64,000 bases of DNA from Candidatus Moraniibacteriota bacterium (GCA_030648835.1 JAUSGT010000001.1:551-64550); one strand, 5' to 3'. Numbered from the stretch's first letter, positions 6,213 through 33,002 are shown. Program-made: numbers and translations. Notes: generated by a model not told the origin, from the letters alone.

Positions 6213-6218
6213 AGAAAT

Positions 6219-7250: not shown

Positions 7251-7255
7251 AGGGG

Positions 7256-7284
7256 TTGACAAGGTAATGATGGCGTGCTAGAAT
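7256..7284 (+). promoter_or_regulatory. Consensus sigma-70 promoter (TTGACA-N17-TAGAAT)
   Basis: Exact -35 TTGACA, 17 nt spacer, then -10 TAGAAT. It is followed by about 170 nt of non-coding sequence and then tRNA-Leu. Confidence 0.6.
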
Positions 7285-7460
7285 GGAGAATCTGAAAACT
7301 TGGACACATTGTTTGAGTTTCGCACCTCTTCTCAAATAGTCATCATGTACGTCGTTTTTTCGCGTACCATAGGGCTTTTTAGCTTTTTCAGATAGGGAAT
7401 CCTAGCACTAGAGCAGAGCTCAGTGCGGGGCAGTCGCGCTAGTTTAACAGTAGTAAATAG

Positions 7461-7544
7461 GCCTTGGTGGTGGAATTGGTAGACACACTAGCTTCAGGTG
7501 CTAGCGGTAGCAATACCATGGGAGTTCGAGTCTCCCCTAAGGCA
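7461..7544 (+). tRNA. tRNA-Leu (anticodon CAG)
   Basis: Cloverleaf with acceptor gccttgg/ctaaggc, anticodon loop tTCAGgt, a long variable arm and T-loop GTTCGAGTC. Confidence 0.8.
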
Positions 7545-7751
7545 CAACGTAGAATAATTTTTTGGGATTATCCCAGAAAGTTCATCTTTCGTCAGGAGCA
7601 GATCTTACAAATCGCTTCAATATAATTCATTTCTGTTGGCGGATAAAAACACCTCAACAGAAAAACTTAATTAATCTTGTAGACAGGTTTTTGCTCGTAG
7701 ACTTTTTGAAGTTTACTTCGGCACAAACAGTTCGAACAAGGAAGTAACAAT

Positions 7752-9938: not shown

Positions 9939-9945
9939 AGGAAAC

Positions 9946-9975
9946 AAAAAAGCTCTCCGAAATGGGGAGCTTTTT
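9946..9975 (+). terminator. Rho-independent terminator after rnj
   Basis: Hairpin 'aaaaagctctcc-gaaatg-gggagctttttg' followed by T-run. Confidence 0.6.
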
Positions 9976-10060
9976 GTTGTGTTGTATGTACCTGATAGCC
10001 AACAACCTTTCAGAGAGACGTTCGTTCACCCAGCGGTTCTCTCACTTCTGAAATTTTTTC

Positions 10061-10122
10061 GATCCGCCGAAACGTCGGCACCATGCTCGAAAAAAGTTCA
10101 AGCCTCTCTGGAAAGATTTTGG
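10061..10122 (+). repeat. Repeated intergenic motif, copy 1 (hairpin followed by the conserved 'GGCACCATGCTCgAAAAAAgTTCAAGCCTC' block)
   Basis: About 85% identical to the motif at 13589..13656. It contains a conserved micro-ORF, MLEKSSSLSGKILAIGA. Confidence 0.5.
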
Positions 10123-10153
10123 CTATAGGCGCATAGTTACTAGGCTTGTACGT

Positions 10154-10939
10154 ATGTTACAATTGCACAGTATGAATATGCTCGAGAAAAAGACCATCAT
10201 CGTCGATAATCTGAGTATCCGGTACTACCAAAGCGCGGACTTTTGGGGTAGCGGAGTTTTGGTGTTTCTCCACGGGTGGGGGTCACAGGCGATGCATTTT
10301 TCGAAGACTTTGGAGAAATGTCACAATGTTGTCGCTCTTGACTTGCCGGGCTTCGGGGAGAGTGAGATGCCGGGGACAGCCTGGGCAATCAGAGACTACG
10401 CCGGATTTTTGCGGCACTTTTTGGAGAAACTGCATATTGAACGACCGATACTCACGGGGCATTCTTTTGGTGGCAATATCGCCATCAAATACTGCGCGGA
10501 ATATGGTGATGTAGAGAAACTGATTCTGATTGGAAGCGCCGGGATACGGAGGAAAACTTTGAAAAAATTATTGTATTTTATTCTGGCGAAAGTATTGAAA
10601 GTCATAGCGTATCTTCCGGGGCTCACCCAATTGCGCGAGCGTGTCAGGAAGTCGTTTTATACCGCCATTGGCTCCGAAGACTATATCCAGTCCGGAGCGC
10701 TCATGGAAACCTATCGCAAAAATATCGGCGAGGATCTGCGAAAAGATATGAAAAAAATCAAAGTACCCACGACCATTATTTGGGGAGAGAACGATGCTAT
10801 GGTACCAGTGGCCGATGGCAAATTGACCCAGGAACATATCAAAGGTTCGCAGATGTTCGTTATCCCTGGCGCCGGGCATTACGTATTTCTCGACAAAGAA
10901 AAAGAATTCGAGGAAATTTTTTTAAAAGCTCTCTCATGA
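10154..10939 (+). CDS. Alpha/beta hydrolase fold protein
   Basis: 261 aa with 'FLHGWGS' and the nucleophile elbow 'GHSFGG'. Its stop overlaps the murF start as ATGA. Confidence 0.7.
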   Translation: MLQLHSMNMLEKKTIIVDNLSIRYYQSADFWGSGVLVFLHGWGSQAMHFSKTLEKCHNVVALDLPGFGESEMPGTAWAIRDYAGFLRHFLEKLHIERPILTGHSFGGNIAIKYCAEYGDVEKLILIGSAGIRRKTLKKLLYFILAKVLKVIAYLPGLTQLRERVRKSFYTAIGSEDYIQSGALMETYRKNIGEDLRKDMKKIKVPTTIIWGENDAMVPVADGKLTQEHIKGSQMFVIPGAGHYVFLDKEKEFEEIFLKALS

Positions 10940-12303
10940 TACTCAAAAATCTCATCTATATTCTGCAGAGCGAGAATTACGATTTCTGGCGTTTTCTCTC
11001 TTTTTGTTACTCGCATCTTCTTTGGTGGCGGCTGGAACAGCGCCAAAGAATCGTCTGGACGATGAAAGCGCGCGCTCTGCAATGGGTGAGTGCGCTCTTG
11101 TTTCTGGGTGTGGCCACCGGAGCTATTTTTTGGCTCGGATGGAACAGAGGCTCTGTCGTTCTGGCCTTTTGTATCGTGACATTGCCTTTCTTCATCGGAG
11201 CAACGCTTCTCCTCCTTCTGCCACTGGATCACTATCTCAAATGGAAAAAGGTATCGCAAGCGAGAGCAATAGTAGAGAAGTCTGGGGTGCAAGTGATCGG
11301 CATCACGGGAAGCTATGGCAAGACGACCACCAAAGAAATTTTGGCCGCTATTTTGGAGAAGCGGTTTTCCGTGATAAAAACGCCGGACAATATCAATACG
11401 GACATTGGCATCGCTGATTTTATCATAGGCCACTCCGGAAAATTCACGAAGGAGAAAATTTTTATTGTCGAAATGGGAGCACACAAGCGAGGTGAGATAG
11501 AAAGCATTTGCCGGATGGTTTTACCCGAGTATTCGATCCTGACCGGTATCAATGAGGCGCATCTGGAGCGTTTCGGCAGTCTCCAAAACATTATTGAGAC
11601 GAAGTTCGAGTTGCCCGCGCATACCGAGAAGCTGACGATCCTCAATGGTGATGACGAAAATGTGAAAAAAAACTATTCTCGATTTGTTAAAATTAAAAAT
11701 ATTTGCGTAACGGGAGCTGACGCACAGGATGTTATCGCCAAAGAAAATTTTCAGGGCTGGCAGTTTGTTTGGCAGGGGACGAATTTTGAGATAGCTCTCC
11801 TCGCGAAACACAATATTACGCTTATCCTCTTGTGCGCGACACTAGCGCGAGAACTTGGACTCTCTCTCGAAATGATTCGGGAGGCTGTAAAGAATGTCCG
11901 ACCGATACCACACAGACTGGAGCCTCTTTACAACGCTGTAACTGGTATTATGGTGATTGATGACAGCTACAATGGCAATGTGGCCGGTATCAAAAGCGGT
12001 ATCGAGCTCTTTGGTTTGGCCAAGGGAAGAAAAGTGGTGTTGACACCGGGGTTGGTGGAGCTGGGCGAAGAATCGGAGCGGATCCATCGACAGATAGGAG
12101 AACTGTATGCGAAGAGCGCTGATCTGGTACTCCTCATCAAGAGTCCTATGACGCCGTTTGTAGAGGATGGTTTGAGGACTCATGCATATACGGCTTATAC
12201 CGTGTATACTACGACAGAGGAAGCCCACAGAGACCTTCCCAATGTACTTCGAAGAGGAGATACGATTATTTTTCAAAATGACCTCACTGATAACTATTTT
12301 TAG
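10936..12303 (+). CDS. murF: UDP-N-acetylmuramoyl-tripeptide--D-alanyl-D-alanine ligase (MurF) with an atypical N-terminal transmembrane region
   Basis: P-loop 'GITGSYGKTTT' and the Mur-ligase middle and C-terminal domains. The first about 120 aa contain two predicted TM helices instead of the usual soluble domain 1. The start is set at the ATG overlapping the upstream stop. Confidence 0.8.
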   Translation: MILKNLIYILQSENYDFWRFLSFCYSHLLWWRLEQRQRIVWTMKARALQWVSALLFLGVATGAIFWLGWNRGSVVLAFCIVTLPFFIGATLLLLLPLDHYLKWKKVSQARAIVEKSGVQVIGITGSYGKTTTKEILAAILEKRFSVIKTPDNINTDIGIADFIIGHSGKFTKEKIFIVEMGAHKRGEIESICRMVLPEYSILTGINEAHLERFGSLQNIIETKFELPAHTEKLTILNGDDENVKKNYSRFVKIKNICVTGADAQDVIAKENFQGWQFVWQGTNFEIALLAKHNITLILLCATLARELGLSLEMIREAVKNVRPIPHRLEPLYNAVTGIMVIDDSYNGNVAGIKSGIELFGLAKGRKVVLTPGLVELGEESERIHRQIGELYAKSADLVLLIKSPMTPFVEDGLRTHAYTAYTVYTTTEEAHRDLPNVLRRGDTIIFQNDLTDNYF

Positions 12304-19950: not shown

Positions 19951-22347
19951 ATGGAAAAAAATACAAAAACAGGCAAGAAAAAAAATTTATTTCGAATACT
20001 CTTCCCCTTTATGAAAGGTAGAACGGGAAAAATCCTTTCATTTTTCGCTTCGCGGAGGCGTGATTATTTTTTTGTGTTTCATTCTCTGATGCGGGGGAGG
20101 AAAAACATAAAAAAATACGCTTATTCCGGCGGACTGATTTTTCTTTTTGCTATCGTTCTCTCCTCGACCGTTTATTTTCAGGACCGGCGTTCTCATGAAT
20201 CTGCCTCGTCGGTGGAAGTTGGCTTTTTCTCTCTTTCTCCCAACGGTTCTCTCGGAGGTGAAATTCTCCCGGCTTCCTGCGAATCTGGTACTATTCATGA
20301 GATGTCTGGCTGTGACATGACCTTTTGGGCTGATAGCACATCACTGCCTTATGGCGGGAGTACCAGCTTACATTGGTACGTACCCACAGGGAATGTGAAT
20401 GCTTATGTCGGTGTTATGAATTCTCATCCCGGCTATCCCGATGGCTTGGAAATTGGTCATATTCAAAGCTGTGTTGCTTCGGGTGACTGGAGCGGTGATC
20501 AAAACGCCAGACCTTATCCTGAAACATACTCTTATTGGTCAACCATCGGTGGTGGTTATCATTTTTATGCTCGACAAAGTGACCCAGGCACAGGATCCTT
20601 AACTTCAACCAAGACGTATAATTTAACCTGCACCATCAACTATCCGGCTTCAGGGGGACAAGATGTGGTGACGAAAAGCGTGACGGTGAATGTTGCGCCG
20701 CATCCTCCCGCTGCCGCCATTTCTGCTGTGCCCAACACGATCCCGTGGAATAGCGCGTCTTTACTTATTTTGGACTCGCAATACTCTACGCGTTGTGGAC
20801 TGGGATATTATGACTATTCCGGAGTTTGGAACAATTCTTCGATAACTCCCAATACAACGATCTACCAATCCACGGGGCCGCTTACTGCCAATCGGACCTA
20901 TTATTTCACCTGTGACAATGGCACTCAAAGCAACCCTGGTGGTTGGCAGCCCGTTGCTATTACTGTTGATCCCGCGCCTACTTCATCCATTTCTGTCTCT
21001 CCTCCTAATCCCGTACCCAATGGCGCCAATCCTAGCTTCACGCTGAACACGAATGCCACAGCTTCTATCTGTTATGTCCGGCATATATTTCCGAATGGTG
21101 TGTGGGACTCGTGGGGTGTGGATAACGCCACCCCGGGTGCTCCGGGTGGAACGTACTATCCCGGACCACAAACCTATTCCGGTACTCATTATGCCGCTTC
21201 TTATTGCTACAATTCCCTTTGGAAGGGACCTACCGTCTGGACGTATACGGGCTTCACTGTTGATCCGGCGCCTACCGTCTCCGTCTCTATCTTACAGAAC
21301 CCTCCTGTACCTTACGGGAGCAACCCGGGTTTCAAACTGGAATCGCAAAATACCGCCGGAGGTACATGCTACATCCAAGTGGATGGTGCCTATCTCACTG
21401 ACGGAACTGATATCTATTTGCCCACATCTGGGACATTTTATCACGGTGCCTTTACCTCACCGGGAACGCATAATTACCGGGCCTTCTGTTACAATTCTGT
21501 AGGGTACGGTACTGGTTGGACGCCTCCAGCTCCGACGAATTATTATTATTTTACCGTCGACCCCGCTCCCACTGCCTCTATCTCTCCAAATGTGACCATA
21601 CCGTATGGGAGCAGTACCACACTCACTCTTTCCAATACCAACTCTTCAACGTGTTATCTGTACAGCACGGCCACTGGATGGGATTACACAAACCGTGCCG
21701 GTACCACCTCTTACAATACAAGCCCTCTGACCGCCACCACTTCCTATACATATCATTGTACGAATGGATATGTTTGGAGTGATAATTATCTTGGCGCTAA
21801 CAATCCAGGCTATCCATGGGCTACGGTTACTGTCGAACCGCCACTACAGCTGTGTCGTAATATAGGAGGAACCTATCAAAAAATTGCAACTCAGGGCGGC
21901 ACGGCTGGTTTTGAGTTGCTCGTTCATGGAGAAGAGTCTGCAATACTTAGGACATATCTCAATAATGCGAATAATTGTTCAGGAAGGGATATAACAGATC
22001 AAACAATTTTTGTCGAGAAAAATAATCCACAAGATGTTATCAGGGTAACTGGTTCGAATCCAAAAATTGTTGAAGCGACTTTGGATATATTACCTCCCAA
22101 AAAGCAGTCAGGAACAGAACGAATTGTTGTCTCCTATAACGGACAGGAGGTTAGTCGAGACATTAACGTTGATGTAGCTGTAGTAGAAAATTGTGTATGG
22201 GACTGTTCGCTAACAGAGAAAGACCATTGTTCAGTGGATGCCAATAATGAAAAGCTAAAGTACAAAGTAACTGACAGCTGCGACATCGAACAGTCTTGCG
22301 ACGGCAAAAGATACTGTGATTACAATTACAAGGAAGTGTCGCCGTAG
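19951..22347 (+). CDS. Large secreted/surface protein with tandem Ig-like repeats and the conserved Cys-rich C-terminal cassette (P1)
   Basis: 798 aa. Internal hydrophobic anchor, three tandem 'FTVDPAPT...' beta-sandwich-like repeats, and a C-terminus '...SCDGKRYCDYNYKEVSP'. The true start may be the internal MRGRKN. Confidence 0.6.
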   Translation: MEKNTKTGKKKNLFRILFPFMKGRTGKILSFFASRRRDYFFVFHSLMRGRKNIKKYAYSGGLIFLFAIVLSSTVYFQDRRSHESASSVEVGFFSLSPNGSLGGEILPASCESGTIHEMSGCDMTFWADSTSLPYGGSTSLHWYVPTGNVNAYVGVMNSHPGYPDGLEIGHIQSCVASGDWSGDQNARPYPETYSYWSTIGGGYHFYARQSDPGTGSLTSTKTYNLTCTINYPASGGQDVVTKSVTVNVAPHPPAAAISAVPNTIPWNSASLLILDSQYSTRCGLGYYDYSGVWNNSSITPNTTIYQSTGPLTANRTYYFTCDNGTQSNPGGWQPVAITVDPAPTSSISVSPPNPVPNGANPSFTLNTNATASICYVRHIFPNGVWDSWGVDNATPGAPGGTYYPGPQTYSGTHYAASYCYNSLWKGPTVWTYTGFTVDPAPTVSVSILQNPPVPYGSNPGFKLESQNTAGGTCYIQVDGAYLTDGTDIYLPTSGTFYHGAFTSPGTHNYRAFCYNSVGYGTGWTPPAPTNYYYFTVDPAPTASISPNVTIPYGSSTTLTLSNTNSSTCYLYSTATGWDYTNRAGTTSYNTSPLTATTSYTYHCTNGYVWSDNYLGANNPGYPWATVTVEPPLQLCRNIGGTYQKIATQGGTAGFELLVHGEESAILRTYLNNANNCSGRDITDQTIFVEKNNPQDVIRVTGSNPKIVEATLDILPPKKQSGTERIVVSYNGQEVSRDINVDVAVVENCVWDCSLTEKDHCSVDANNEKLKYKVTDSCDIEQSCDGKRYCDYNYKEVSP

Positions 22348-22450
22348 AGGGGGAGAGAGAATCGTGAGTTGAGAAAGATGTATCAAAAAAAAGGGGCACC
22401 ACTCGCCCCTTTTCGTGTTATAATGACAACAAACATATACACAAGTAATT

Positions 22451-24199
22451 ATGCGTATCGAACTTGATCAGCTCAAAAGTTTTTTGCTTGATTCTAATCT
22501 CATCCCCAAGGAAAAAGTGGAACAGGCAGCGGCAGAAGCCGAGAAGAATGAGAAAAATCTTGGGGTACTCCTTTTGGAGAAAAAACTCATTCAAGAAGTG
22601 GAGTTGCAGAAAGTGTACGCCTATATTCTGGGTATTCCGTTCGTGGATCTTTCCAAGGAAACCATACCGATCGAGATACTGCAGATTGTTCCGGAGCTCA
22701 TTGCCAAAAAATACAATATTGTTTCTTTCGAAAAAACCGGAGTCAATCTGAAGGTGGCCATGCTCAATCCCGAGGATCTCCAGACGATCGATTTCATCAA
22801 GAAAAAAACCGGCTTGAAAATTGTGCCGTGTCTCACCACTCAGGAGAGCATCCAGGCGATACTTCGTCAGTATGAGAAGAGTCTCAAAGCGGAGTTTGGC
22901 GACATTTTGACAGGGGAGATCAAACCGGACGGCGAGAGTCAGGACGATGAGGATCTCGAGCAAGTGGCTGCGGGTCTGCCCATCATCCGTATCGTGGATA
23001 CGCTTTTGAAACACGCCATTCTCGAATCGGCAAGCGATATCCATATCGAACCGGAAGAAAAAGAAGTGCATGTCCGTTATCGGATCGACGGCGTTTTGCA
23101 TGACGCGATGACTTTGCCCAAAGACGTGGCGGCCGGCATTGTGGCACGCATCAAAGTGCTCTCCAATTTGAAACTGGATGAACATCGTCTTCCACAGGAC
23201 GGGCGATTCAAGATCCAGAGTGACGAGTACAAGATCTCTTTCCGGGTCAGTATGTTGCCGGTGTTTGACGGGGAGAAAATTGTGATGCGTCTTCTGGACG
23301 AGACCTCCAAAGGGTTGACGCTCGAGAAAATGGGGCTGAATGGCCAGGCACTGGAAGCGGTACACCGGGAAATCAGCAAACCGAACGGTATGATCCTCGT
23401 CACCGGTCCGACCGGTTCCGGAAAAACAACGACGCTCTATACCGTGATGGATATTTTGAATACCCCGGAAGTGAATATCTCGACCGTCGAGGATCCGGTA
23501 GAATATCGGATGCCGCGCGTGAATCAGACACAGATCAATCCGAAAGTCGGGATGACGTTTGCCGCGGCGCTGCGCTCCCTTTTGCGTCAGGATCCGGACA
23601 TCATCATGGTGGGGGAAATTCGCGACCAAGAAACCCTGGAAATCGCCATGCACGCGGCGATGACGGGGCATCTGGTGCTTTCTACTCTCCATACCAACAA
23701 CGCGTCCGCGACATTGCCTCGGATGCTCGATATGGGAGCGGAACCGTTTCTCATCGCCTCAACGGTGAATGTCATTATCGCTCAGCGTCTCATCAGGCGC
23801 CTGTGTGTCGAATGCCGCAAGGCCTATCAGCTCGACAAAAAAGAAATCGAATCACTTCAAAAATTCTATACTATCGACGATATTTTCACCTATCTCAAAA
23901 ACGATCCTGCCAGTAAGAAATATGTCGAGAAGGCAAAGAGTTGGGAAGAAATTACCATGTACAAGCCGGTCGGCTGCGATAAGTGCGGAGGTGAAGGCTA
24001 TCATGGTCGCAACGGTATCTATGAGGTTCTGCCGATGACCGACGGTATCCGCAAGCTGGTGACGCAGTCGGCGTCGACCGAGATGATCGAGACCGAAGCC
24101 AAGAAGAGCGGGATGGCGACGATGGTGGAGGATGGTTTTTCAAAAATCGTGCAGGGGATGACCTCGCTCGAAGAAGTGATGCGCGCGACGAAGGAGTAG
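22451..24199 (+). CDS. pilB: Type II secretion / type IV pilus assembly ATPase (GspE/PilB family)
   Basis: 582 aa. N-terminal GSPII_E N-domain, Walker A 'GPTGSGKTTTLY', and the tetracysteine motif (CVEC...CDKCGGEG). Confidence 0.9.
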   Translation: MRIELDQLKSFLLDSNLIPKEKVEQAAAEAEKNEKNLGVLLLEKKLIQEVELQKVYAYILGIPFVDLSKETIPIEILQIVPELIAKKYNIVSFEKTGVNLKVAMLNPEDLQTIDFIKKKTGLKIVPCLTTQESIQAILRQYEKSLKAEFGDILTGEIKPDGESQDDEDLEQVAAGLPIIRIVDTLLKHAILESASDIHIEPEEKEVHVRYRIDGVLHDAMTLPKDVAAGIVARIKVLSNLKLDEHRLPQDGRFKIQSDEYKISFRVSMLPVFDGEKIVMRLLDETSKGLTLEKMGLNGQALEAVHREISKPNGMILVTGPTGSGKTTTLYTVMDILNTPEVNISTVEDPVEYRMPRVNQTQINPKVGMTFAAALRSLLRQDPDIIMVGEIRDQETLEIAMHAAMTGHLVLSTLHTNNASATLPRMLDMGAEPFLIASTVNVIIAQRLIRRLCVECRKAYQLDKKEIESLQKFYTIDDIFTYLKNDPASKKYVEKAKSWEEITMYKPVGCDKCGGEGYHGRNGIYEVLPMTDGIRKLVTQSASTEMIETEAKKSGMATMVEDGFSKIVQGMTSLEEVMRATKE

Positions 24200-24258
24200 C
24201 CAATTGCTTGATTACTTTCAAATTTTATTAATTTTTAAGCAGAGGGAATATAGGTAAG

Positions 24259-25713
24259 ATGAAATCAAAAAAGCAAAAATACAATTTGTTATTTTTGAAA
24301 ACTCTAGTGGCGGCAGTTTTTGTTTTCGTTCTGCCACTTTTTGTTTTTGCGCAGACATCCAATGAACCTACATCATTACCTGCACAAAATGTGGAAGTCA
24401 GTCCCTTGACGACATCGCCTCCGCCATCTTTCATTTCTCCAAACGCATTTCAAGGGCAGCCAACCGGACTCAGCTCCTGCTTTGACTATTACCGCTTCGG
24501 TTCCATACAGGTGAGTGTCTCGCCATCGCTCTCTCAAGTGATGCAGGGATCCGCTATCGCCTTCTCCGGTACCGTCACCAACCAAAATCACTATCCCATC
24601 ATTGATGCGACCGTCTACATCAAGATTTTTCATGATCGCACGGGCGGCGCAAAAAATATAAACGGTCCCGACGTGGTTGATTGGTTCCCCGCGGCTGAGC
24701 ACATCACGCTCAAAGCCGATGAATCGAAACCGCTCTCATTCGTCTGGCAGGTGCCGTATGACGCTGACCCGGGTGCGTATAAAGCGGCGATGTATGTGAC
24801 GGCATCCGACCGTTTCGAGCTCTCCGGCCTTGTCTTTACTGACGATGTCACGGGGTCTATGGAATCGTTCGATGTGGTTGGCAGCGCTTCTGGCGATACG
24901 CGCTTCGACAAAGCTAGAGTAACGATAAACGACATCCCCTTCTATTTTGCTGCGTTCCCTCCCACTATTGCGGCATCAACAAAGACCGTCACGGTGTCTG
25001 TCCCCGTAATGAATTCGTCCGCTCGATCTTACGCCGGAACGCTCTCTTGGAAACTCTATTACTGGGATCAGCTTCAGACAAATCATCTTATCGCGCAGTC
25101 GAGTGTCGCCATCAATCTTAATCCCGAAAGCGCCACGACGGTTTCGTATGTCGTGAATGATACTGCTCATGCAGTTTATTATCTCGTCGGCTCTCTCGAG
25201 AACTCGATGAGCGGTGCGAAGTCAATTATCGGCGTACGCTTCGTACGCGAAGGAGTTGCCGAACCGCGCATCAATGCGATGGGGGTAAGTGCCTATCCAC
25301 CCACGCAGGGTGCAACAGCTTTTGTCTGTGTGCACTCGACGAGCAATGATCTGTCCCAGAACGCGCGGGTGGAGTTGTCGGTAACGCCTGTTGGTTTTCT
25401 TGCCGGTCTTTTGGGGCCGCGTGCGCATACCGCCTATACAGGAATTATTCCGGGCGATATCTATGCACTCACCGCACCGATTGCGGGCAGAGCATCCTCT
25501 TTTGACCTCACCGCCTTCCTTTACGACGGACAGGGCGCTTTGGTTGATAGTGTGACGATACCGTATCGCTGTAGCGATCTCGGCGCAAAGTGCAATGATA
25601 TGACTTTGCCGATAATTCTTGGCACTCTTGCTATCGTCGTTATTATTGGCGCAATCATTATCGTCCGACGTCGGCATGCATATGCCCGACAACAGAATCA
25701 ATCAAACGTATGA
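24259..25713 (+). CDS. Cell-surface protein with a signal peptide and a C-terminal TM anchor plus basic tail
   Basis: 484 aa. Signal peptide 'VAAVFVFVLPLFVFAQT'. C-terminus 'LPIILGTLAIVVIIGAIIIVRRRHAYARQ'. Its stop overlaps the next start (ATGA). Confidence 0.6.
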   Translation: MKSKKQKYNLLFLKTLVAAVFVFVLPLFVFAQTSNEPTSLPAQNVEVSPLTTSPPPSFISPNAFQGQPTGLSSCFDYYRFGSIQVSVSPSLSQVMQGSAIAFSGTVTNQNHYPIIDATVYIKIFHDRTGGAKNINGPDVVDWFPAAEHITLKADESKPLSFVWQVPYDADPGAYKAAMYVTASDRFELSGLVFTDDVTGSMESFDVVGSASGDTRFDKARVTINDIPFYFAAFPPTIAASTKTVTVSVPVMNSSARSYAGTLSWKLYYWDQLQTNHLIAQSSVAINLNPESATTVSYVVNDTAHAVYYLVGSLENSMSGAKSIIGVRFVREGVAEPRINAMGVSAYPPTQGATAFVCVHSTSNDLSQNARVELSVTPVGFLAGLLGPRAHTAYTGIIPGDIYALTAPIAGRASSFDLTAFLYDGQGALVDSVTIPYRCSDLGAKCNDMTLPIILGTLAIVVIIGAIIIVRRRHAYARQQNQSNV

Positions 25714-27983
25714 GAAGTTATCGCGCGAATCAAAGCCGAACCATCTATTTTGTTTTTGCATTCGTGCTTACCGTGCTTTTGACGCCGGTGCGGAGCGAAG
25801 CAGCTTCGGCGACATGGAGCAAAACAATGTCAGACACATACCTTGCGTATGCCTGGAATAATGGCGGGTGTTCCGGAACAGGTGGTTATACGTTGGGGCT
25901 TGCGAATCCAAGCTTCGGTGTCACTTATAACGCTCAAGTTCTCTCATCGTCTGGGGTTCCTATAGCTTCTTCCGGTACAGTGACGAGCGGTCAGTCGGTC
26001 ATTCTCAAATTTCAACCTCACCAATCATCCGATATCTCGTGGTTTGGAACGGGGTATTCAACGGACACTCCTTTCGGCGAATGGGGGACTTCCGCTCCGG
26101 CGTTGACATGTGACAGCAAGGATCAGGTGACTACTTGGAGTATGTATGGAATACGGGCATACATCCCTCTGGTAATAGCTCCTCCGACACAGACGCTTTC
26201 AAATCTTTCCGGGCTCTCGTGCGGTGTTTTGACTCACAATAGTGATGGAAGCGACCAGACGACTTGCACCGTTACGGCAACGAGCGGCACTCTTTCTCCG
26301 ACTTTCGACTTTGCGGCGACTACGGGAACGCTTTATTACCGGTATGACAAGTATCCGTATAGTTGTACTCCAAATGCGTGTGTGGCAAATAATACTCCTA
26401 TGGCGCTTATGAATGCCGGTTCCGGGGCTACTATCGCAAACTGGTACCAAAAAGGAGGAACCATAGGAATAGGAGCTCTTTGGAATGCTTCTACCACTCC
26501 TTTTCAACTTTCCGTTACTGACCAAAGCATCTCATACAGTCTGACTGTTTCTCCGCCTGCCGCATCGCCAAATACACCAACAGTTACCTGTCCTGCTACT
26601 GCTACCGTCGGACAGAACGCCTTTTTCACCGTTACCGGGACAGACCCGAACGGTTTGACGATACGTTATGGTATGGACTGGACCGGTTCAAGTTCTACAC
26701 CTAATGAATGGACTCCTGTAAGCGGGTATGTGCTTTCCGGTACGCAAATGATGTTGATGCATACCTGGGCTTCTGCTGGTATCTACGGGGTTCGTGCACT
26801 TACGGAAAATTCACAGGGTGGACAATCCGGCTGGTCAACGGGTTGTACAGTGACCGTCACTCTTCCGCCGCCGCCAACTATACTTTTTGTCGTATCTCCG
26901 ACATCGGTTATAACATACGCGAGTTCGCTTACGGCTTCTATCGGAAGTGAAACTGCCGTGTTGTCATGGTATTCCATAGGCGCTACTTCGTGCACGGCTT
27001 CAGATTCGTGGTCCGGATCAAAAGATATCGGATTTATGCCAATAACGTGGGCGTCTTGGCAAGAAACAGTCGGGCCATATGCGACTGCAGGGAGCTACCT
27101 ATATACGCTTTCTTGTACTGGTTTAGGTGGTACTGTGTCGAAGACGGTGACAGTCACTGTCAACGACACTTTTCCCGTCACTACCTTCACCGGTACGTAT
27201 GCCGGACTACCAGCCCAAACGAATCTGACCACTCTCAACCTCCCAGTTGGCGGAGGCAGTGTCAATCTCAATTGGTCTGTCACGAATGCTGCTTCAGGAA
27301 TCTGTACCGGATACTCAACCACAGGAGTAACTGATTGGGCAACGACTGGAACTGACGGCAAACCAGTGACTGGCACAAATGTCTCAGTCACTGTCTCTGG
27401 TACAACGACATTTGATCTCGATTGTTGGAATACCTCTACAACCCCATGGGTAGCAGCCACTCGGCAGTCTGTCGTGGTGAATGTGGCTGTTCCCCCCTCC
27501 ACTCTCAAGATCTGCCAGGACTCTTGCCAAAACTCTTACCGTACTCCTCGTGGCCAAGGCGGCGCCACGACAAGCTTCAGCCTTGTCAAAGGCACTTCCC
27601 AAGACCTGGTTGCCTGCTACAATACTGTCTCTGACTGTTCTGATTCTTCAGGCGATGTTACAGCATCACCCGGTACTGTTTGGGCAGAAGATGCTTCTAA
27701 CAATATTATTTCCCTTTCTTCGGTTCTGGGCAAAGAACGTGTCACCGGCGACGCTCCTGGCACGGAAAACTTCACTGCCCAGTACAGCGGAGCAACCGCT
27801 ACGATGGCTGTTTCTGTCACCTGCGTTGAAACGGTGACATGCACCTCCGAACAAAACAAAGTCTGCTCCGGCAAAACAGTACCCGCCGGAACAACCCTTA
27901 CCGGAATTTGTGGGCCAGTCTACTGCGAAGGCAAGTCCGGCAAGAGATATTGCGACTTCAACTGGAAAGAAGTGGCTCCGTGA
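25710..27983 (+). CDS. Large secreted protein with Ig-like repeats, a Big_2-like domain and the conserved Cys-rich C-terminal cassette (P2)
   Basis: 757 aa with a signal peptide. Ig-like repeats fit the pattern 'S..L.W......C.....W.G....TYTL.C.G.GG..S.TVTV'. The C-terminus is 'CEGKSGKRYCDFNWKEVAP'. Confidence 0.65.
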   Translation: MRSYRANQSRTIYFVFAFVLTVLLTPVRSEAASATWSKTMSDTYLAYAWNNGGCSGTGGYTLGLANPSFGVTYNAQVLSSSGVPIASSGTVTSGQSVILKFQPHQSSDISWFGTGYSTDTPFGEWGTSAPALTCDSKDQVTTWSMYGIRAYIPLVIAPPTQTLSNLSGLSCGVLTHNSDGSDQTTCTVTATSGTLSPTFDFAATTGTLYYRYDKYPYSCTPNACVANNTPMALMNAGSGATIANWYQKGGTIGIGALWNASTTPFQLSVTDQSISYSLTVSPPAASPNTPTVTCPATATVGQNAFFTVTGTDPNGLTIRYGMDWTGSSSTPNEWTPVSGYVLSGTQMMLMHTWASAGIYGVRALTENSQGGQSGWSTGCTVTVTLPPPPTILFVVSPTSVITYASSLTASIGSETAVLSWYSIGATSCTASDSWSGSKDIGFMPITWASWQETVGPYATAGSYLYTLSCTGLGGTVSKTVTVTVNDTFPVTTFTGTYAGLPAQTNLTTLNLPVGGGSVNLNWSVTNAASGICTGYSTTGVTDWATTGTDGKPVTGTNVSVTVSGTTTFDLDCWNTSTTPWVAATRQSVVVNVAVPPSTLKICQDSCQNSYRTPRGQGGATTSFSLVKGTSQDLVACYNTVSDCSDSSGDVTASPGTVWAEDASNNIISLSSVLGKERVTGDAPGTENFTAQYSGATATMAVSVTCVETVTCTSEQNKVCSGKTVPAGTTLTGICGPVYCEGKSGKRYCDFNWKEVAP

Positions 27984-28073
27984 GGGGACTGGCGGTTTTC
28001 TATTCTTGGTGATTCTTCTGGATGGAGTATACTGAAAACAGTTACGTTTTATAAATGAAACATACACAAGAAT

Positions 28074-28646
28074 ATGCTTGAACAGTCTTCACGACCGTTG
28101 AAAGTTGCTCTATCAGTATTATGTGTCGTCATGCTTGCGGTGCTTGTTCTTGTTATTTTGGGAGAGAATGGGGTGCTCGGAAAGAAAACAGTAATTACCC
28201 AGCCCGCCGTTACTACGAGCCAGTCTCAACCACAAACTGTACAGCCGGTACCGCCGACAGAAGTGCGCAGAGTACTCGGTACGGTAGAAAAAGTTTCCGG
28301 TCAAGAGATCATGCTTAAGGATTTTAGGAAAATATCGAGTATTGTTACCGCTGTATCCGATCAATCGGAGCGTATGTTTGTCACCGTCGATCAGTCGACG
28401 ATTATTGAACGCTTTACGTATAAAGACGCAACAACCATAGCGAAAGAGCAGGATGCTTTTGTTAAAAATATTCAAGAAATACAACGACAAAACCCGTCTG
28501 TCCCTCCGACACCGCCGGAACCTTTTACGTTTGAAAAAATTACATTGAGTGATATCAAAATTGGTGACAAAGTTATGGCGTCTTTTGGGGAGGATATATC
28601 AAACCTTGCGACTTTCACAGCGACAAAAATAGAAGTACGAAATTAA
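28074..28646 (+). CDS. Small N-anchored hypothetical protein (paralog of the 19169 gene)
   Basis: 190 aa. N-terminus 'SSRPLKVALSVLCVVMLAVLVLVILGENGVLGKKTVIT'. Confidence 0.55.
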   Translation: MLEQSSRPLKVALSVLCVVMLAVLVLVILGENGVLGKKTVITQPAVTTSQSQPQTVQPVPPTEVRRVLGTVEKVSGQEIMLKDFRKISSIVTAVSDQSERMFVTVDQSTIIERFTYKDATTIAKEQDAFVKNIQEIQRQNPSVPPTPPEPFTFEKITLSDIKIGDKVMASFGEDISNLATFTATKIEVRN

Positions 28647-28650
28647 ATTT

Positions 28651-30411
28651 ATGAGATCAAACCATTTTCATCTAAAATTTATTGCAGTAGCGACATTGTT
28701 TTTGTTTGTTGGGATTTTCCCGATTCGACAGACTCATGCTGCTGCTGACGGCACCCTTTTTGGTTGGGGGATGAATTTCTACGGCAATCTCGGCTTAGGT
28801 TGGGCCAGCCACGGTTATAGCAATGCCCTAGGTTTTTCCCGTGACTATGTCCTTTCTCCGACCCAAGTCGGGATGGCAACAAATTGGGCCAGCATCTCGG
28901 CGGGAAACTTTTTTGTTATGGCCACAAAGGCCGACGGCACCCTGTGGGGTTGGGGGAATAATTCCTCCGGTCAGCTCGGTTTAGGCTACATTTCTAACCC
29001 GCCTTACTCTTGGGATTCTGGGTATTCTACCGGTATTTGGTCCCCGACCCAAGTCGGATCGGGAACAAATTGGGCCAATGTCGCGGCAGGGGACAGTTTC
29101 GTTTTAGCCGTAAAAACCGACGGCACCTTGTGGGCTTGGGGAGGTAATCCTGATGGACAACTTGGTTTAGGTGATACAATTAGTCGTTCGGTACCAACTC
29201 GGGTCGGGACAGATACAAATTGGTCTGGTGCTGTGGGGAAGATTTCCGGAGGATATGCAAATTCTGCGGCTGTAAAAACAGACGGTACTATTTGGGTTTG
29301 GGGAAGTGATGTATTTGGCGAGCTCGGTCAAGGCAACACCAATGGTGCCATCAGTCGCTATTATCCGACCCAAGTCGGAACGGCGACGAATTGGGACAAA
29401 GTTTCGGCGATGGGTCAATTTACCGTTTTAGCCACCAAGACCGACGGCACCCTTTGGGCTTGGGGAGATAATATGTATGGCCAGGTTGGTCCCGGGTATG
29501 TCGACTACTCTGGTAATGGTCAACATTCTGTACCGGCTCAAGTTGGGACGGGGACAAATTGGAGTAGTATTGGTCAGGGAGATACATACTCTATGGCTTT
29601 AAAGAGGGATGGCACTATGTGGGTCTGGGGTAGGGTTTCTATCCCGTTCGCCGTCAATTGTGATGTGTCGGGCTGCTATGGGATGACAGGTTCTCCGACC
29701 CAAGTTGGGACGGCAACGGATTGGCGTAGTTTTGGAGCATATCCCTATCCCACCAGCGTGGCTGCTATAAAGACAGACGGTACCCTGTGGGATTGGGGGA
29801 ATAATTGGTATGGTAATCTCGGCTTAGGTGATACCGTCACTCGCAATTCCCAGACCCAGGTCGGAACGGGAACAAATTGGGACAGCGTTACGTCGGGCAT
29901 ATATGGAACTATGGCAATAACAGGCACACCTCCTCCTCCAACCACCCTCAAAGCATGCGTGAGCTCCTGTACTACGACGGGAGCCAGTGCCATCACGAAT
30001 TTGACTATGGCTTACAATAGTACGAGTACTATCGCAGCTTGTTACAACACCGCCGCAGCCTGTGATGCGCCCGATAACACTGGGAATGTTACTCTTTCTT
30101 CTGCATGGGCAGAGTCCGGGACAGACGTTGTTTCTCTCTCGGATCAAAGCAATAGTACGAAGAAATTCCAATCAGGAACAGCATATGGCACGGAAACAAT
30201 CACTATCACATATCTGACACAATCAGTAACACTGAATGTGACCGTACCTTGCATCGAAACGATGACATGCGCTGCTGAACAGACAAAAGTCTGTTCCGAT
30301 AAAACAGTGCCCACTGGAAAAACTCTTTCCGGAATCTGTGGAACAGTCGACTGCGGCGGCAAGCCTGGCAAGAGGTATTGTGATTTCAACTGGAAAGAAG
30401 TGGCGCCGTAG
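28651..30411 (+). CDS. Secreted RCC1-repeat (beta-propeller) protein with Big_2-like domain and the conserved Cys-rich C-terminal cassette (P3)
   Basis: 586 aa with a signal peptide. At least seven 'DGT[LI]W[AGV]WG.N..GQLGLG' RCC1 repeats. The C-terminus 'CGGKPGKRYCDFNWKEVAP' is about 70% identical to the P2 tail. Confidence 0.7.
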   Translation: MRSNHFHLKFIAVATLFLFVGIFPIRQTHAAADGTLFGWGMNFYGNLGLGWASHGYSNALGFSRDYVLSPTQVGMATNWASISAGNFFVMATKADGTLWGWGNNSSGQLGLGYISNPPYSWDSGYSTGIWSPTQVGSGTNWANVAAGDSFVLAVKTDGTLWAWGGNPDGQLGLGDTISRSVPTRVGTDTNWSGAVGKISGGYANSAAVKTDGTIWVWGSDVFGELGQGNTNGAISRYYPTQVGTATNWDKVSAMGQFTVLATKTDGTLWAWGDNMYGQVGPGYVDYSGNGQHSVPAQVGTGTNWSSIGQGDTYSMALKRDGTMWVWGRVSIPFAVNCDVSGCYGMTGSPTQVGTATDWRSFGAYPYPTSVAAIKTDGTLWDWGNNWYGNLGLGDTVTRNSQTQVGTGTNWDSVTSGIYGTMAITGTPPPPTTLKACVSSCTTTGASAITNLTMAYNSTSTIAACYNTAAACDAPDNTGNVTLSSAWAESGTDVVSLSDQSNSTKKFQSGTAYGTETITITYLTQSVTLNVTVPCIETMTCAAEQTKVCSDKTVPTGKTLSGICGTVDCGGKPGKRYCDFNWKEVAP

Positions 30412-30425
30412 GAAAAGTATTTCAG

Positions 30426-33002
30426 TTGTTGTATATTACAATCAAAATGCAAACAGAAAAACAATTACAAAACCTAATATTTTTAAGCATTGGTATAGTG
30501 GCAGCATTTGTTTTTGCTGTTCCGTTTTTTGTTCTTGCGCAGGAAACAGAGGGACCTGTTTTTGGTGACACAGTCCAGAGTAAAGCCGTGCTTTTGGCAA
30601 CAGTGAATATTTATAATGCTACTTTCATACAAACCGGAAACAATTTCTCCCTTTCCTTTGATTTAACGAATAAGGTTGGTGTTCAGCCGGGGATCAAATA
30701 CAGCGCCGTTCTCATAAAAGAAACAAAAGAGGGGCAGGTTGTTGTGGATGAACATGTCTATGACGAAGTTGTGGCTCTCGGTGAGAATAGCTCTGTGCAT
30801 AAAATAGTCGACTATACAGCCCCAGCCAATTTGGAAGGCGAATATACTCTTCTTATTTCAAGTAAAAATACGAGTGATTTTCCTTTTGGGCAAATCTTGC
30901 TCGGTACAGTAAACCTTCAAAAGAGCGCCACTGATGCGAATCCAATTGCTATAGACACACAGAGTTGCTACCTGACAGTAGAAGGGGAAGAAGGCCAGCC
31001 GCACCACGTCCCTTCTCAGGGCGTTGTTATTTCTTCTGCCGAAAATTTACAAAGTAATTGTTTGGTAGAGAATACTTCGAGTTCTCCAGTCGTTACCACA
31101 CCTTTATTTACCACTCGCGCGCGTTCAAATTTTGGCGGTACAGTAGACGCGCAAGGTGGTGATATCGGCTCCATCACACTGGCTCCGTACGAAAAGAGAA
31201 TGGTTGTCACCGCGCTCCCGAAACCGTTACTGTCTCAATCCTACTCTGTGAATCTGCAATATGGATCAACAAGCAATAGAATCTCCTATTATTACGTTAT
31301 TTCGGGTGGTGGCGCGACGATTCAAAGCATCCTTTTTGATAAAGACAATTATACAAAAGGAGAAACAGCGGATATTTCGTTTATGTGGTCACCATCCGTC
31401 GATACTCTTCGTAGCTTTTCTCAGGGAACAACCCCAAAACCAACTACATTTTCTGTCACTATTTTACTGGTTGACGAAAACGGAAATTCTTGTGCCAATC
31501 CTTTCAATCAATCCGTTACCAGCCAAGAAATGCGGTTGGAGCTTACGATACCTATGACTGCTTCTTGTCTTCACCCGAAAGCGGATGTGACACTCATGGA
31601 CGCACAGTCAAACACGTCATCCCACGTCTCATTTGAGACAGGGGTGGCATCTCCATCTTTGCAAAAAGGACCCAATGTAAAAATTGTCGCTCTTTCCGTG
31701 TTTGTGATCCTCTTATTCATCATAGGCGCCTTTGTCTTTTACAGAAAAAGAATTCGTATTTCTCTGCCGCCGACCTTGCTCTTCTTTATTGTCGTTATGG
31801 GGAGTATGTTTCTTGGCCCAGGCAGCGCGAAAGCGGATACATTTGCTATGGGTTACGGAGTTTACACAGTGTCAATCAATAAAGCCTCATATGCACCTGG
31901 TGAACCAATGACAATTTATGGTTCGGTGCGAAACCTCGTACCTTCTCTTACTTTTGAATTTCGTCTTTTCTATGCTATCGATACAAGTATTTATAATTCA
32001 TGTCCAAGTTGTCGCAATGTTTTTGATGTAGGTGTCGGGGGATCTCCTTATTCAACTTCTGTCAGCGCTTTTGCCCCATCTGGTGTAGGGGGGCATAGTG
32101 TTACTTTTCTTGCCGCTGATGCTGTGTTTGCGGGGGTTCATACGTTAGCGGGTGGTTTTACTGTTACATCGGCGTGCGCCCCAGATCAAGGTACTGCGTG
32201 TCCTTCAACAACTGCCAACGTTTGCGGTCAGACTCAGTCCGACGGCGCTATTCAATGCGATGGTTCTTGTTCATCAACTACGCCACCGATAACTACTCCC
32301 AATGGTACTACCTATCGTGCTTCCTGTGTCTCTTCCACCAACGCCTGTGATCAGACTCAGTCCGATGGCACTATTCAATGTGATGGTTCTTGCTCATCGA
32401 CTCCTCCACCGAATTCAAATTGTCCGCTTCCTACTCTCGATTTTTCTGCCAACCCGACCACAGTTACGTCTGGTGATTCATCAACCATCACCTGGACGAC
32501 AACTAATGCTACCTGGTGTTGGGCATGGTCGGATAATACGATGAACGATGGGAACTGGACAATTTTTGATGATGGCACCCCGGGTGATAATTGGAAAATT
32601 AGTACTGATGGAACTCATACTCAAACTGTCTTTCCGACTGCTTCCACTACGTATAGTATGGAATGCGGAAACAGTATCGATGCTTCTTCCGGAGCAAAGC
32701 AAGCCACGGTGACGGTGCCTGCGAGAATAAATGGTGGATGGTCTCTTTGGTCAAACTGTTCTTCTACAACTTGTGGAACGGATGGGACACAAACGAGAAC
32801 GTGTACCAACCCCGCTCCTTCGGGCGGCGGTGCGGATTGTGTTGGACCTCTCACTCAGAGTTGCACCAATCTGCCTTGCTGTATTCCGGATTGCAGCGCG
32901 GCTGTCAATTACTGTAGTGGCACTAGCTTCGATGACAGTTGTGGGGGATCATGCACCGGTACTCGCTTTTGCAATTTCAATTGGAAAGAAGTGGCGCCGT
33001 AG
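30426..33002 (+). CDS. Fusion-like surface protein: an N-terminal paralog of the 24259 anchor protein, an internal TM and signal-like segment, a thrombospondin type-1 repeat and the conserved Cys-rich C-terminus (P4)
   Basis: 858 aa. The signal peptide 'VAAFVFAVPFFVLAQETEGP' resembles that of the 24259 product. An internal stretch 'VALSVFVILLFIIGAFVFYRKRIRISLPPTLLFFIVVMGSMFLGPGSAKA' has TM, basic and signal-peptide-like character. The TSP1-like stretch is 'WSLWSNCSSTTCGTDGTQTRTC'. The protein ends 'FCNFNWKEVAP'. Confidence 0.6.
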   Translation: MLYITIKMQTEKQLQNLIFLSIGIVAAFVFAVPFFVLAQETEGPVFGDTVQSKAVLLATVNIYNATFIQTGNNFSLSFDLTNKVGVQPGIKYSAVLIKETKEGQVVVDEHVYDEVVALGENSSVHKIVDYTAPANLEGEYTLLISSKNTSDFPFGQILLGTVNLQKSATDANPIAIDTQSCYLTVEGEEGQPHHVPSQGVVISSAENLQSNCLVENTSSSPVVTTPLFTTRARSNFGGTVDAQGGDIGSITLAPYEKRMVVTALPKPLLSQSYSVNLQYGSTSNRISYYYVISGGGATIQSILFDKDNYTKGETADISFMWSPSVDTLRSFSQGTTPKPTTFSVTILLVDENGNSCANPFNQSVTSQEMRLELTIPMTASCLHPKADVTLMDAQSNTSSHVSFETGVASPSLQKGPNVKIVALSVFVILLFIIGAFVFYRKRIRISLPPTLLFFIVVMGSMFLGPGSAKADTFAMGYGVYTVSINKASYAPGEPMTIYGSVRNLVPSLTFEFRLFYAIDTSIYNSCPSCRNVFDVGVGGSPYSTSVSAFAPSGVGGHSVTFLAADAVFAGVHTLAGGFTVTSACAPDQGTACPSTTANVCGQTQSDGAIQCDGSCSSTTPPITTPNGTTYRASCVSSTNACDQTQSDGTIQCDGSCSSTPPPNSNCPLPTLDFSANPTTVTSGDSSTITWTTTNATWCWAWSDNTMNDGNWTIFDDGTPGDNWKISTDGTHTQTVFPTASTTYSMECGNSIDASSGAKQATVTVPARINGGWSLWSNCSSTTCGTDGTQTRTCTNPAPSGGGADCVGPLTQSCTNLPCCIPDCSAAVNYCSGTSFDDSCGGSCTGTRFCNFNWKEVAP

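Follow-up and report, generated by a model that had tools for sequence, protein, structure and literature searches.

A 64,000-nucleotide (nt) stretch of DNA from a Candidatus Moranbacteria metagenome-assembled genome (MAG; Patescibacteria/Candidate Phyla Radiation), hereafter called the window, carries on its plus strand a gene cluster (19951-33002) that is flanked by housekeeping genes. In this study, we report the characterisation of three genes of this cluster: A1, which encodes an anchor protein with a C-terminal transmembrane (TM) helix; P2, which encodes its secreted partner; and P4, in which an anchor part and a secreted passenger part are joined in a single open reading frame (ORF). 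The proteins encoded by A1 and P4 were found in NCBI as entries Q7S04_00105 and Q7S04_00125, respectively, each with 100% identity to the window protein. The features of the three genes are given below, with protein positions in amino acids (aa).

24259-25713, plus strand: A1 anchor gene, 484 aa.
24259..24351, plus strand: A1 signal peptide, aa 1-31, hydrophobic at aa 11-29 and alignable with the P4 signal peptide; cut predicted at VFA/QT by the -3/-1 rule.
24352..25602, plus strand: A1 ectodomain of three tandem beta-sandwich domains (immunoglobulin (Ig)/CARDB-like).
25603..25713, plus strand: A1 TM helix (hydrophobic core aa 450-469, 25606-25665; AlphaFold helix 449-479), basic cytoplasmic tail RRRHAYARQQNQSNV and stop.
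25710-27983, plus strand: P2 gene, the start of which overlaps the A1 stop.
25710..25713, plus strand: ATGA overlap of the P2 start codon (25710-25712) and the A1 TGA (25711-25713).
25710..25802, plus strand: P2 signal peptide, aa 1-31, predicted cut SEA/AS; corresponds to the second hydrophobic segment of fused relatives.
25803..26948, plus strand: P2 conserved membrane-proximal region, aa 32-413, defined by a hidden Markov model (HMM) match, with a PKD/Ig-type domain at about aa 283-380.
26949..27983, plus strand: P2 variable distal part, with a C-terminal cassette of about 160 aa from about 27501 and the tail ...GKRYCDFNWKEVAP.
30447-33002, plus strand: P4 gene, with an alternative TTG start at 30426.
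30447..30539, plus strand: P4 signal peptide, aa 1-31, predicted cut VLA/QE (alternative TTG start 30426).
30540..31682, plus strand: P4 anchor-type ectodomain, remotely homologous to that of A1 and likewise built of three beta-sandwich domains (hhalign, AlphaFold).
31683..31739, plus strand: P4 TM1, aa 413-431, predicted stop-transfer helix (hydropathy 3.15; AlphaFold helix 411-435).
31740..31772, plus strand: P4 basic loop YRKRIRISLPP, aa 432-442, predicted to be cytoplasmic.
31773..31835, plus strand: P4 internal signal-peptide-like segment, aa 443-463, with h-region TLLFFIVVMGSMFL and c-region GPGSAKA; predicted cut after A463.
31836..33002, plus strand: P4 passenger, with a conserved beta-sandwich at aa 464-573 ('NKxSYAPGE'), Cys-rich repeats, TSP1 and the tail ...GTRFCNFNWKEVAP.

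Inspection of the translated genes agreed with the initial annotation on the main features of A1, namely the N-terminal hydrophobic segment, the C-terminal TM segment and the basic tail, and on the overlap of the A1 stop and the P2 start as ATGA. The reported lack of a stop codon between the two parts of P4 was also confirmed, the frame being open from 30426/30447 to 33002 through IVALSVFVILLFIIGAFVF, YRKRIRISLPP and TLLFFIVVMGSMFLGPGSAKA/DTF. ATG 30447 is more likely to be the start of P4 than TTG 30426, because this Met aligns with the Met of A1.

The relationship between the two anchors proved to be much older than had been proposed. Their N-termini, previously described as near-identical, share only 17 of 37 residues (46%, E 9e-8, BLASTP). 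The first ~420 aa of P4 had been considered a paralog of A1, and this part of the claim stands as remote, collinear homology detected with profiles, but it is not supported by BLASTP, which links residues 1-37 only and gave no significant match between the bodies of about 400 aa. Comparison of the A1 family with the P4 family using hhalign gave a probability of 96.2% (E 2.2e-9) over 299 collinear columns with 17% identity. A local profile-profile run of A1 against P4 gave 95.5%, and 83.8% once the signal peptide and the TM segment had been removed, while the A1 profile compared with the N-region of P2 as a control gave 0.2%. The same architecture was claimed for both anchors and was recovered in the AlphaFold models, each of which shows three beta-sandwiches followed by a TM helix. 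The A1 model has a predicted local distance difference test score (pLDDT) of 87 and a predicted template modelling score (pTM) of 0.78; the P4 model (residues 1-662) has a pLDDT of 73, with the strands at aa 48-397 mostly above 85. The silence of BLASTP on the bodies, the collinearity at the profile level and the matching models therefore indicate that the anchors are ancient relatives and not recent duplicates. A recent duplication is also contradicted by the low identity of the anchors (~17%) and by their membership of separate, widespread families. Nor do the genes represent a simple duplication of a two-gene module, as had been suggested, because the passenger halves are unrelated but for the C-terminal tail: P2 and the C-terminal part of P4 share only the last ~30 aa, and homology beyond these was not detected using BLASTP or hhalign (4.9%). 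A1 and P4 are two old sister families which, in the sampled data, are restricted to Patescibacteria.

The signal peptides of the two window genes (24259-24369 in A1 and 30447-30557 in P4) are more alike than either is to its closest orthologs, with VAA-VF---P-FV-AQ in common. This likeness hints at within-genome convergence or at gene conversion at the 5' ends.

The A1 family was surveyed in one genome per species (GTDB) with a family HMM (E 1e-130 to 1e-180) applied to ORFs that we called ourselves, and 80 loci were obtained. Nearly all of the record titles were of Patescibacteria lineages or generic ('bacterium', 'uncultured bacterium'); the exceptions were five Bdellovibrionales and one Peregrinibacteria, which are labels as given by the pipelines. 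In these loci, 46 A1-type anchors stand alone and 35 form the N-terminal part of fused proteins of 860-1,965 aa, which have the layout TM1, K/R loop, second hydrophobic segment, xEA/KS(V/A)xW motif and long passenger. The nearest 101 homologs of A1 are all stand-alone proteins of ~280-530 aa (mostly ~450-500), and nearly all of the 40 homologs inspected at the C-terminus carry a TM segment and a basic patch. A P2-like gene lies next to about 33 of the stand-alone anchors, downstream in about 24 and upstream in at least 9, and the commonest downstream arrangement in the split loci is a 4-nt overlap. In one clade of the family (L013, L024, L026, L032, L040, L044, L056, L064 and L072) the P2-like partner is directly upstream of the anchor, so that adjacency has been kept despite the reversed order, and L044 has such a partner on both sides.

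A passenger HMM was built solely from the 330 aa that follow TM1 in the 35 fused A1-family proteins. This HMM matched P2 of the window (E 7.6e-92, aa 7-413), the P2 signal peptide included, and it also matched 33 downstream partners in split loci and, in at least 9 further loci, partners encoded directly upstream of the anchor. The PDB chain 4xed_A (99 residues) matched positions 271-370 of the passenger profile (E 1e-17). In the alignment of split and fused junctions, the N-terminal Met and signal peptide of the split partners fall opposite the loop and the second hydrophobic segment of fused proteins, and the sequences come into register around xEA/KSxxW.

When 1.84 billion cluster representatives were searched exhaustively with a profile, 1,271 matches were obtained, 879 of them at E <= 1e-30; the best 150 of the 1,271 comprised 99 of fused length and 51 stand-alone proteins. 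A neighbour-joining tree of the anchor domain required at least 11 switches between the fused and unfused states, compared with 26.6 on average and no fewer than 17 when the labels were shuffled. With midpoint rooting, the deepest branches of the A1 family are fused, and A1 of the window lies inside an all-split clade. The anchor has a mean column identity of 36% and is better conserved than the passenger.

In the P4 family the fused state is the common one. All 36 database homologs of P4 are fused, with a TM segment at ~aa 400-440 and a further 150-750 aa after it. The second hydrophobic segment is visible in most of the 36, the anchor part is conserved, and conservation is unbroken across the junction to ~aa 500. 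Metagenome contigs were scanned with a 14-sequence P4-family alignment as the query, and 70 fused, 6 stand-alone and 10 contig-end-truncated members were found, so that 70/76 complete members are fused. All six split P4-type anchors precede a gene for a signal-peptide protein, with an overlap of 4 to 26 nt at five loci and a gap of 36 nt at one. In at least three of the six partners the predicted mature end (...KA/ followed by DTF, DTY or ATF) matches the motif found after the junction in fused proteins; one of them, at L085, reads VVKA/DTFTW...NIDKSSYNPGE. In a further protein, P0276 (898 aa), a P4-type anchor (aa 11-425, E 1e-95) precedes an A1-type anchor (aa 429-887) that is complete, including a TM helix and an RRRRR tail of its own. 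A TM, a basic loop and a signal-peptide segment connect the two in the usual way; therefore, the junction can also join two anchors.

Comparison of orthologous loci, which the initial annotation had recommended, revealed that the split and the fused state recur in both families, over hundreds of relatives' genomes. The rosetta-stone relationship between anchor and secreted partner proposed there is upheld by 35 fused and about 33 split cases among 82 anchors of the A1 type and by 70 and 6, respectively, of the P4 type. As judged from these gene arrangements, anchor and passenger are evolutionarily coupled, and this is better supported by the other genomes than by the window alone. The fusion had been presented as peculiar to the second copy in this genome; instead, P4-family members are commonly fused, and so are the deepest A1-family branches of the midpoint-rooted tree. 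The pairing of the parts is also specific, A1-type anchors occurring with 'KSxxW' bases and P4-type anchors with 'DTF...NKxSYxPGE' bases, and the two kinds of base are mutually unrelated.

To characterise the junction, fused sequences were anchored on the conserved motif and their composition was counted by position. Positions other than the anchored ones provide independent evidence, because anchoring fixed only -1 and the residues that follow. K/R residues are enriched at -25 to -22, a hydrophobic run extends from -21 to -8, and Pro/Gly peaks at -7/-6, reaching 74% at -6 in the A1 type and, in the P4 type, 43-48% with the 48% at -6. At -3, 33/42 P4-type junctions have Ala and 18/19 A1-type junctions have A/T/V/S; position -1 is Ala, and a candidate cut site is present in 33/34 and 65/65 junctions. 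In a 33-sequence alignment of the P4 family, A463 (the -1 residue of P4) is invariant, and the A-x-A/DTF motif is conserved. The hydrophobic core has a median length of 20 aa in TM1 and of 15-16 aa (up to 22-24) in the second segment, and the medians for the intervening loops are 7-8 aa in length and +4 in net charge, the loop of P4 being YRKRIR. AlphaFold models the second segment of P4 as a short helix (443-453), after which residues 455-461 are disordered. A charged n-region, an h-region with a helix breaker and small residues at -3/-1, all features of signal peptidase I substrates, are thus present at the junction. As reported in PMC2120157, cleaved signal peptides are told apart from signal anchors by their shorter h-regions. 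By its composition, the junction bears the hallmarks of a cleavable Sec signal peptide, as opposed to a signal anchor, and proteolytic separation of P4 at a conserved signal-peptidase-I-type site, which had been raised as a possibility, is plausible.

We consider it probable that A1 with P2, and P4, are two versions of one Patescibacteria-specific, two-part surface device in which the passenger is cut free and then held by the anchor. The anchor part would comprise a Sec signal peptide, three extracellular beta-sandwich domains, a single TM helix and a short stretch of basic residues in the cytoplasm. The passenger part would comprise its own cleavable-type signal peptide, a family-specific membrane-proximal domain and variable distal modules, among them PKD/Ig-like domains, Cys-rich repeats, TSP1 and the C-terminal cassette. 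In the P4 chain, the anchor ectodomain would be exported until TM1 halts transfer, and the basic loop would remain in the cytoplasm, serving also as n-region for the signal peptide that follows. Export would resume at the second hydrophobic segment, bringing both large parts outside the cell, and signal peptidase I would cut after A-x-A (GSAKA/DTF in P4) to yield one anchor and one free passenger in a 1:1 ratio. The same products would be made in the split arrangement from A1 and P2 as two genes translationally coupled through ATGA. The passenger would stay on the cell because its conserved base binds the anchor ectodomain non-covalently, which would explain the pairing of anchor type with base type, the adjacency of the genes in either order and the conservation of the anchor above that of the passenger.

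The likely role of such a device would be the display of variable adhesin-like modules on an episymbiotic cell. Two loci carry tandem fused copies that differ in their outer parts. At L057, the copies (5842-9114 and 9956-12016) are 92% identical to ~aa 533, that is, over the anchor, the hairpin and the first ~50 passenger residues, and unrelated beyond. At L116, the first 884 aa of the copies (5977-8907 and 8970-11828) are 100% identical and only the C-terminal end differs. These sequences look like the result of passenger or cassette swapping on a constant anchor, and the variable, shuffled distal modules suggest a display of binding modules on the episymbiotic cell.

Several observations weigh against this interpretation. 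About 14 stand-alone A1-type anchors have no detected partner nearby, although most of these are at contig edges or are filter misses. The second-segment core of 15-16 aa is at the long end for h-regions, which have about 7-15 aa, and would be compatible with an uncleaved helical hairpin, and part of the conservation of A-x-A may stem from a structural role played by the residues after it (DTF, KSxxW). The AlphaFold model of P4 has a pTM of 0.69 and carries no usable inter-domain information, and the adhesin role is drawn solely from the types of domain and the known lifestyle of cultivated Patescibacteria.

The main alternative, though an unlikely one, is the same device with the second hydrophobic segment left uncut. 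The fused protein would then form a two-helix hairpin with both large parts outside, and the partner in split forms would be tethered by its own uncleaved N-terminal signal anchor, so that binding between anchor and passenger would be unnecessary and fission or fusion nearly neutral. AlphaFold indeed draws the second segment as a helix beside TM1, but in the P4 model this helix has only ~11 residues (443-453) and is followed by disorder. The core of the segment is fairly long (median 15-16 aa, up to 22-24), as a retained helix would be; however, small residues at -3/-1 and Pro/Gly at -6 are strongly conserved, although neither is required in a plain TM helix. The frequent switching of state (at least 11 times) would come easily if both states were equivalent without a protease, yet separate tethers would leave little reason for the strict pairing of anchor and base or for adjacency in two orders.

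It is improbable that the pair forms a two-component surface-layer (S-layer) or envelope scaffold, a stalk and canopy resembling SlaB/SlaA of Sulfolobus, instead of an adhesin display. The SlaA/SlaB system is archaeal, lattice-forming and present in single copy, and we know of no fused SlaAB form with an internal signal peptide. The layout of the module fits such a scaffold in that the gene for a membrane protein with a C-terminal TM helix, built like SlaB as a beta-sandwich stalk, is adjacent to the gene for a large secreted partner. The good conservation of the anchor (mean column identity 36%) and the wide distribution of the family in the phylum (1,271 clusters) fit as well. Unlike SlaA/SlaB, however, the passengers are multi-copy and highly variable. 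Several different copies are found per genome, for example L015, L044 and L053 in one Paceibacterota MAG and two in the window, and tandem copies occur in L042, L057 and L116. Passenger lengths span ~150-1,500 aa and the distal domains are shuffled, a picture that differs from that of one lattice-forming protein. Nothing resembling SlaA/SlaB in sequence or in specific fold was found, and Pfam, NCBIfam, profile and fold searches gave no sequence or fold similarity to known S-layer families.

That the P4 fusion is an assembly artefact (a missed stop or frameshift), or that the passenger is made from an internal start near 31797, both of which the initial annotation had raised, is effectively refuted by the comparative data: the exact P4 sequence is present in one contig only, but the junction is read through in 36/36 database homologs, in 70 metagenome contigs and in 35 A1-type fused genes, NCBI annotates the same long protein (P0001, 834 aa), and the Met at ~31797 is not conserved, has no purine-rich ribosome-binding site upstream and would remove the n-region and half of the h-region, leaving the product without a working signal peptide.

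The device favoured here, with a passenger cut free from its anchor and held by it, was compared with known systems, and the module belongs to none of them. The closest parallel in working principle is that of the viral glycoprotein precursors. In the alphavirus PE2-6K-E1 and phlebovirus Gn/Gc precursors, internal signal peptides are cut by host signal peptidase (PMC2110293, PMC4974537). As in these precursors, a stop-transfer TM is followed in the fused proteins by a short loop, predicted to be cytoplasmic, then by an internal signal bearing a small-x-small site and by a further ectodomain; in the viral case, cutting gives two membrane-associated partners in a 1:1 ratio that stay together. 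The viral precursors are processed in the endoplasmic reticulum and their cleavage is proven, whereas the genes described here are chromosomal and bacterial, have no sequence relationship to them, encode a cleavage that is predicted from the junction, and also exist as two genes.

For the fused and split states, the closest parallel is that of autotransporters and two-partner secretion. Within type V secretion, autotransporters consist of one chain (passenger and translocator), while the two-partner secretion proteins TpsA/TpsB are encoded by two genes. In both type V secretion and the present families, a surface passenger and its membrane partner are fused or encoded by adjacent genes according to lineage. 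The type V partner is an outer-membrane beta-barrel of diderm bacteria, whereas here it is a single-helix protein of the cytoplasmic membrane with an Ig-like ectodomain. Membership of type V secretion was rejected, as there was no Pfam/NCBIfam match to autotransporter or two-partner secretion families and the model of the A1 anchor consists of three beta-sandwiches and one TM helix.

As an anchor with a partner, the module is closest to SlaB/SlaA and to SlpA of Clostridioides difficile. The SlpA precursor is cut at a non-signal site by the cysteine protease Cwp84, and anchoring to the cell wall is through CWB2. As predicted for the P4 chain, it is a single precursor in a single-membrane bacterium that gives two surface proteins remaining associated; unlike the P4 chain, it has neither a TM hairpin nor an internal signal peptide. 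Our literature search, which was incomplete, revealed no account of this family or of natural bacterial polyproteins cut at internal signal peptides, and the precedents for internal signal peptides that it returned were viral and eukaryotic only. Two-part surface display with fusion and fission is known in kind, and the processing mode is possibly new for bacteria.

More tentatively, the members of this large family (>1,000 clusters) may be natural polyproteins that signal peptidase I cuts at an internal signal peptide, the variable adhesin-like passenger then being held non-covalently by the membrane anchor translated with it; the peptide bond between the parts would have given way repeatedly to a gene boundary at this very point. 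It would then be a bacterial counterpart of viral glycoprotein-precursor processing, and perhaps the main host-contact device of many Patescibacteria. Much of bacterial diversity lies within the Patescibacteria, whose cultivated members live attached to other microbes. A constant anchor with swappable outer parts, distributed phylum-wide and often in multiple copies, is what a host-recognition device would be expected to look like, and the module provides a testable candidate. For studies of protein export, it provides hundreds of natural pairs: two given ectodomains are synthesised either in one chain, around an internal signal peptide, or in two chains with a signal peptide each. A series of this kind could reveal under which conditions a hydrophobic segment inside a chain is cleaved and under which it is retained as a helix. 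For annotation, at least three unnamed families are described (A1-type anchor, P4-type anchor and P2-type passenger base), together with a warning against the splitting or merging of these genes as supposed errors.

The remaining genes of the cluster are as follows.

19951-22347, plus strand: 798-aa secreted protein, the first gene of the cluster.
22451-24199, plus strand: PilB/GspE-type ATPase (Pfam/NCBIfam).
28074-28646, plus strand: 190-aa protein with an N-terminal TM segment.
28651-30411, plus strand: RCC1-repeat protein.

When all seven cluster genes were searched against Pfam and NCBIfam, no curated family was found for A1 or P2, and P4 matched TSP_1 only. Scanning of the locus for promoters and terminators gave counts at the level of shuffled sequence. 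The PilB/GspE-type ATPase gene is directly upstream of A1, and the same adjacency is seen in the Moraniibacteriota loci L008 and L057. A functional link to PilB was rejected, as PilB is within 10 kb of the anchor in only 7/80 loci; therefore, the adjacency looks like lineage-specific synteny. A type IV pilus component was also rejected, the sole match being to PilY2 with 19.6 bits, under the cut-off of 25.

The C-terminal ends of the passengers share a further feature. Four genes of the window end in ...C(D/N)(F/Y)N(W/Y)KEV(A/S)P (22301-22345, 27937-27981, 30365-30409 and 32956-33000). Most passengers (L001-L160) and several other signal-peptide proteins have a short soluble tail with an aromatic or hydrophobic residue, any residue, Glu and a hydrophobic residue, often followed by x-Pro. 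Its variants include NWKEVAP in the window and LPxFxEF, LPNWQEQ and NPDFREL in other lineages. The tail has no TM segment after it and no Pfam/NCBIfam match, and a described C-terminal signal of Patescibacteria was not found in the literature, the search being incomplete; the tail looks like an undescribed Patescibacteria C-terminal signal or a binding strand. Sortase anchoring (LPXTG) was rejected for the passengers, which end in soluble tails without a TM segment and gave no NCBIfam sorting-domain match.

The ~160-aa cassette at the C-terminus of P2 (27501-27983) is also present in the RCC1-repeat protein (29920-30411), with 47% protein identity, and the last 173 nt of the two genes are 79% identical. 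The cassette consists of an Ig-like domain, a Cys-rich knot and the tail, of which P4 has the Cys-rich tail only. The 798-aa protein appears by eye to end in a more diverged cassette (21850-22347), and its last 45 nt, which were the part compared, are 73% identical. In the P4 passenger, the TSP_1 match (Pfam, ~32736-32879, E 2.5e-5) exceeds the cut-off, and the domain is also found in two P4 homologs; the thrombospondin type 1 repeat is mostly a domain of animal proteins. A 75-nt direct repeat in the same passenger (32215-32289 and 32338-32412) is 85% identical between its two copies, which are 123 nt apart. It encodes the Cys-rich unit ...C(G/D)QTQSDG(A/T)IQCDGSCSST(T/P)PP twice, in a stretch that is disordered in the AlphaFold model. 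Lastly, the gene for the 190-aa protein (28074-28646, N-terminal TM) and that for the secreted RCC1-repeat protein with its cassette (28651-30411) form a tight pair, 4 nt apart, and these may represent a second, unrelated kind of anchor-plus-passenger pair.

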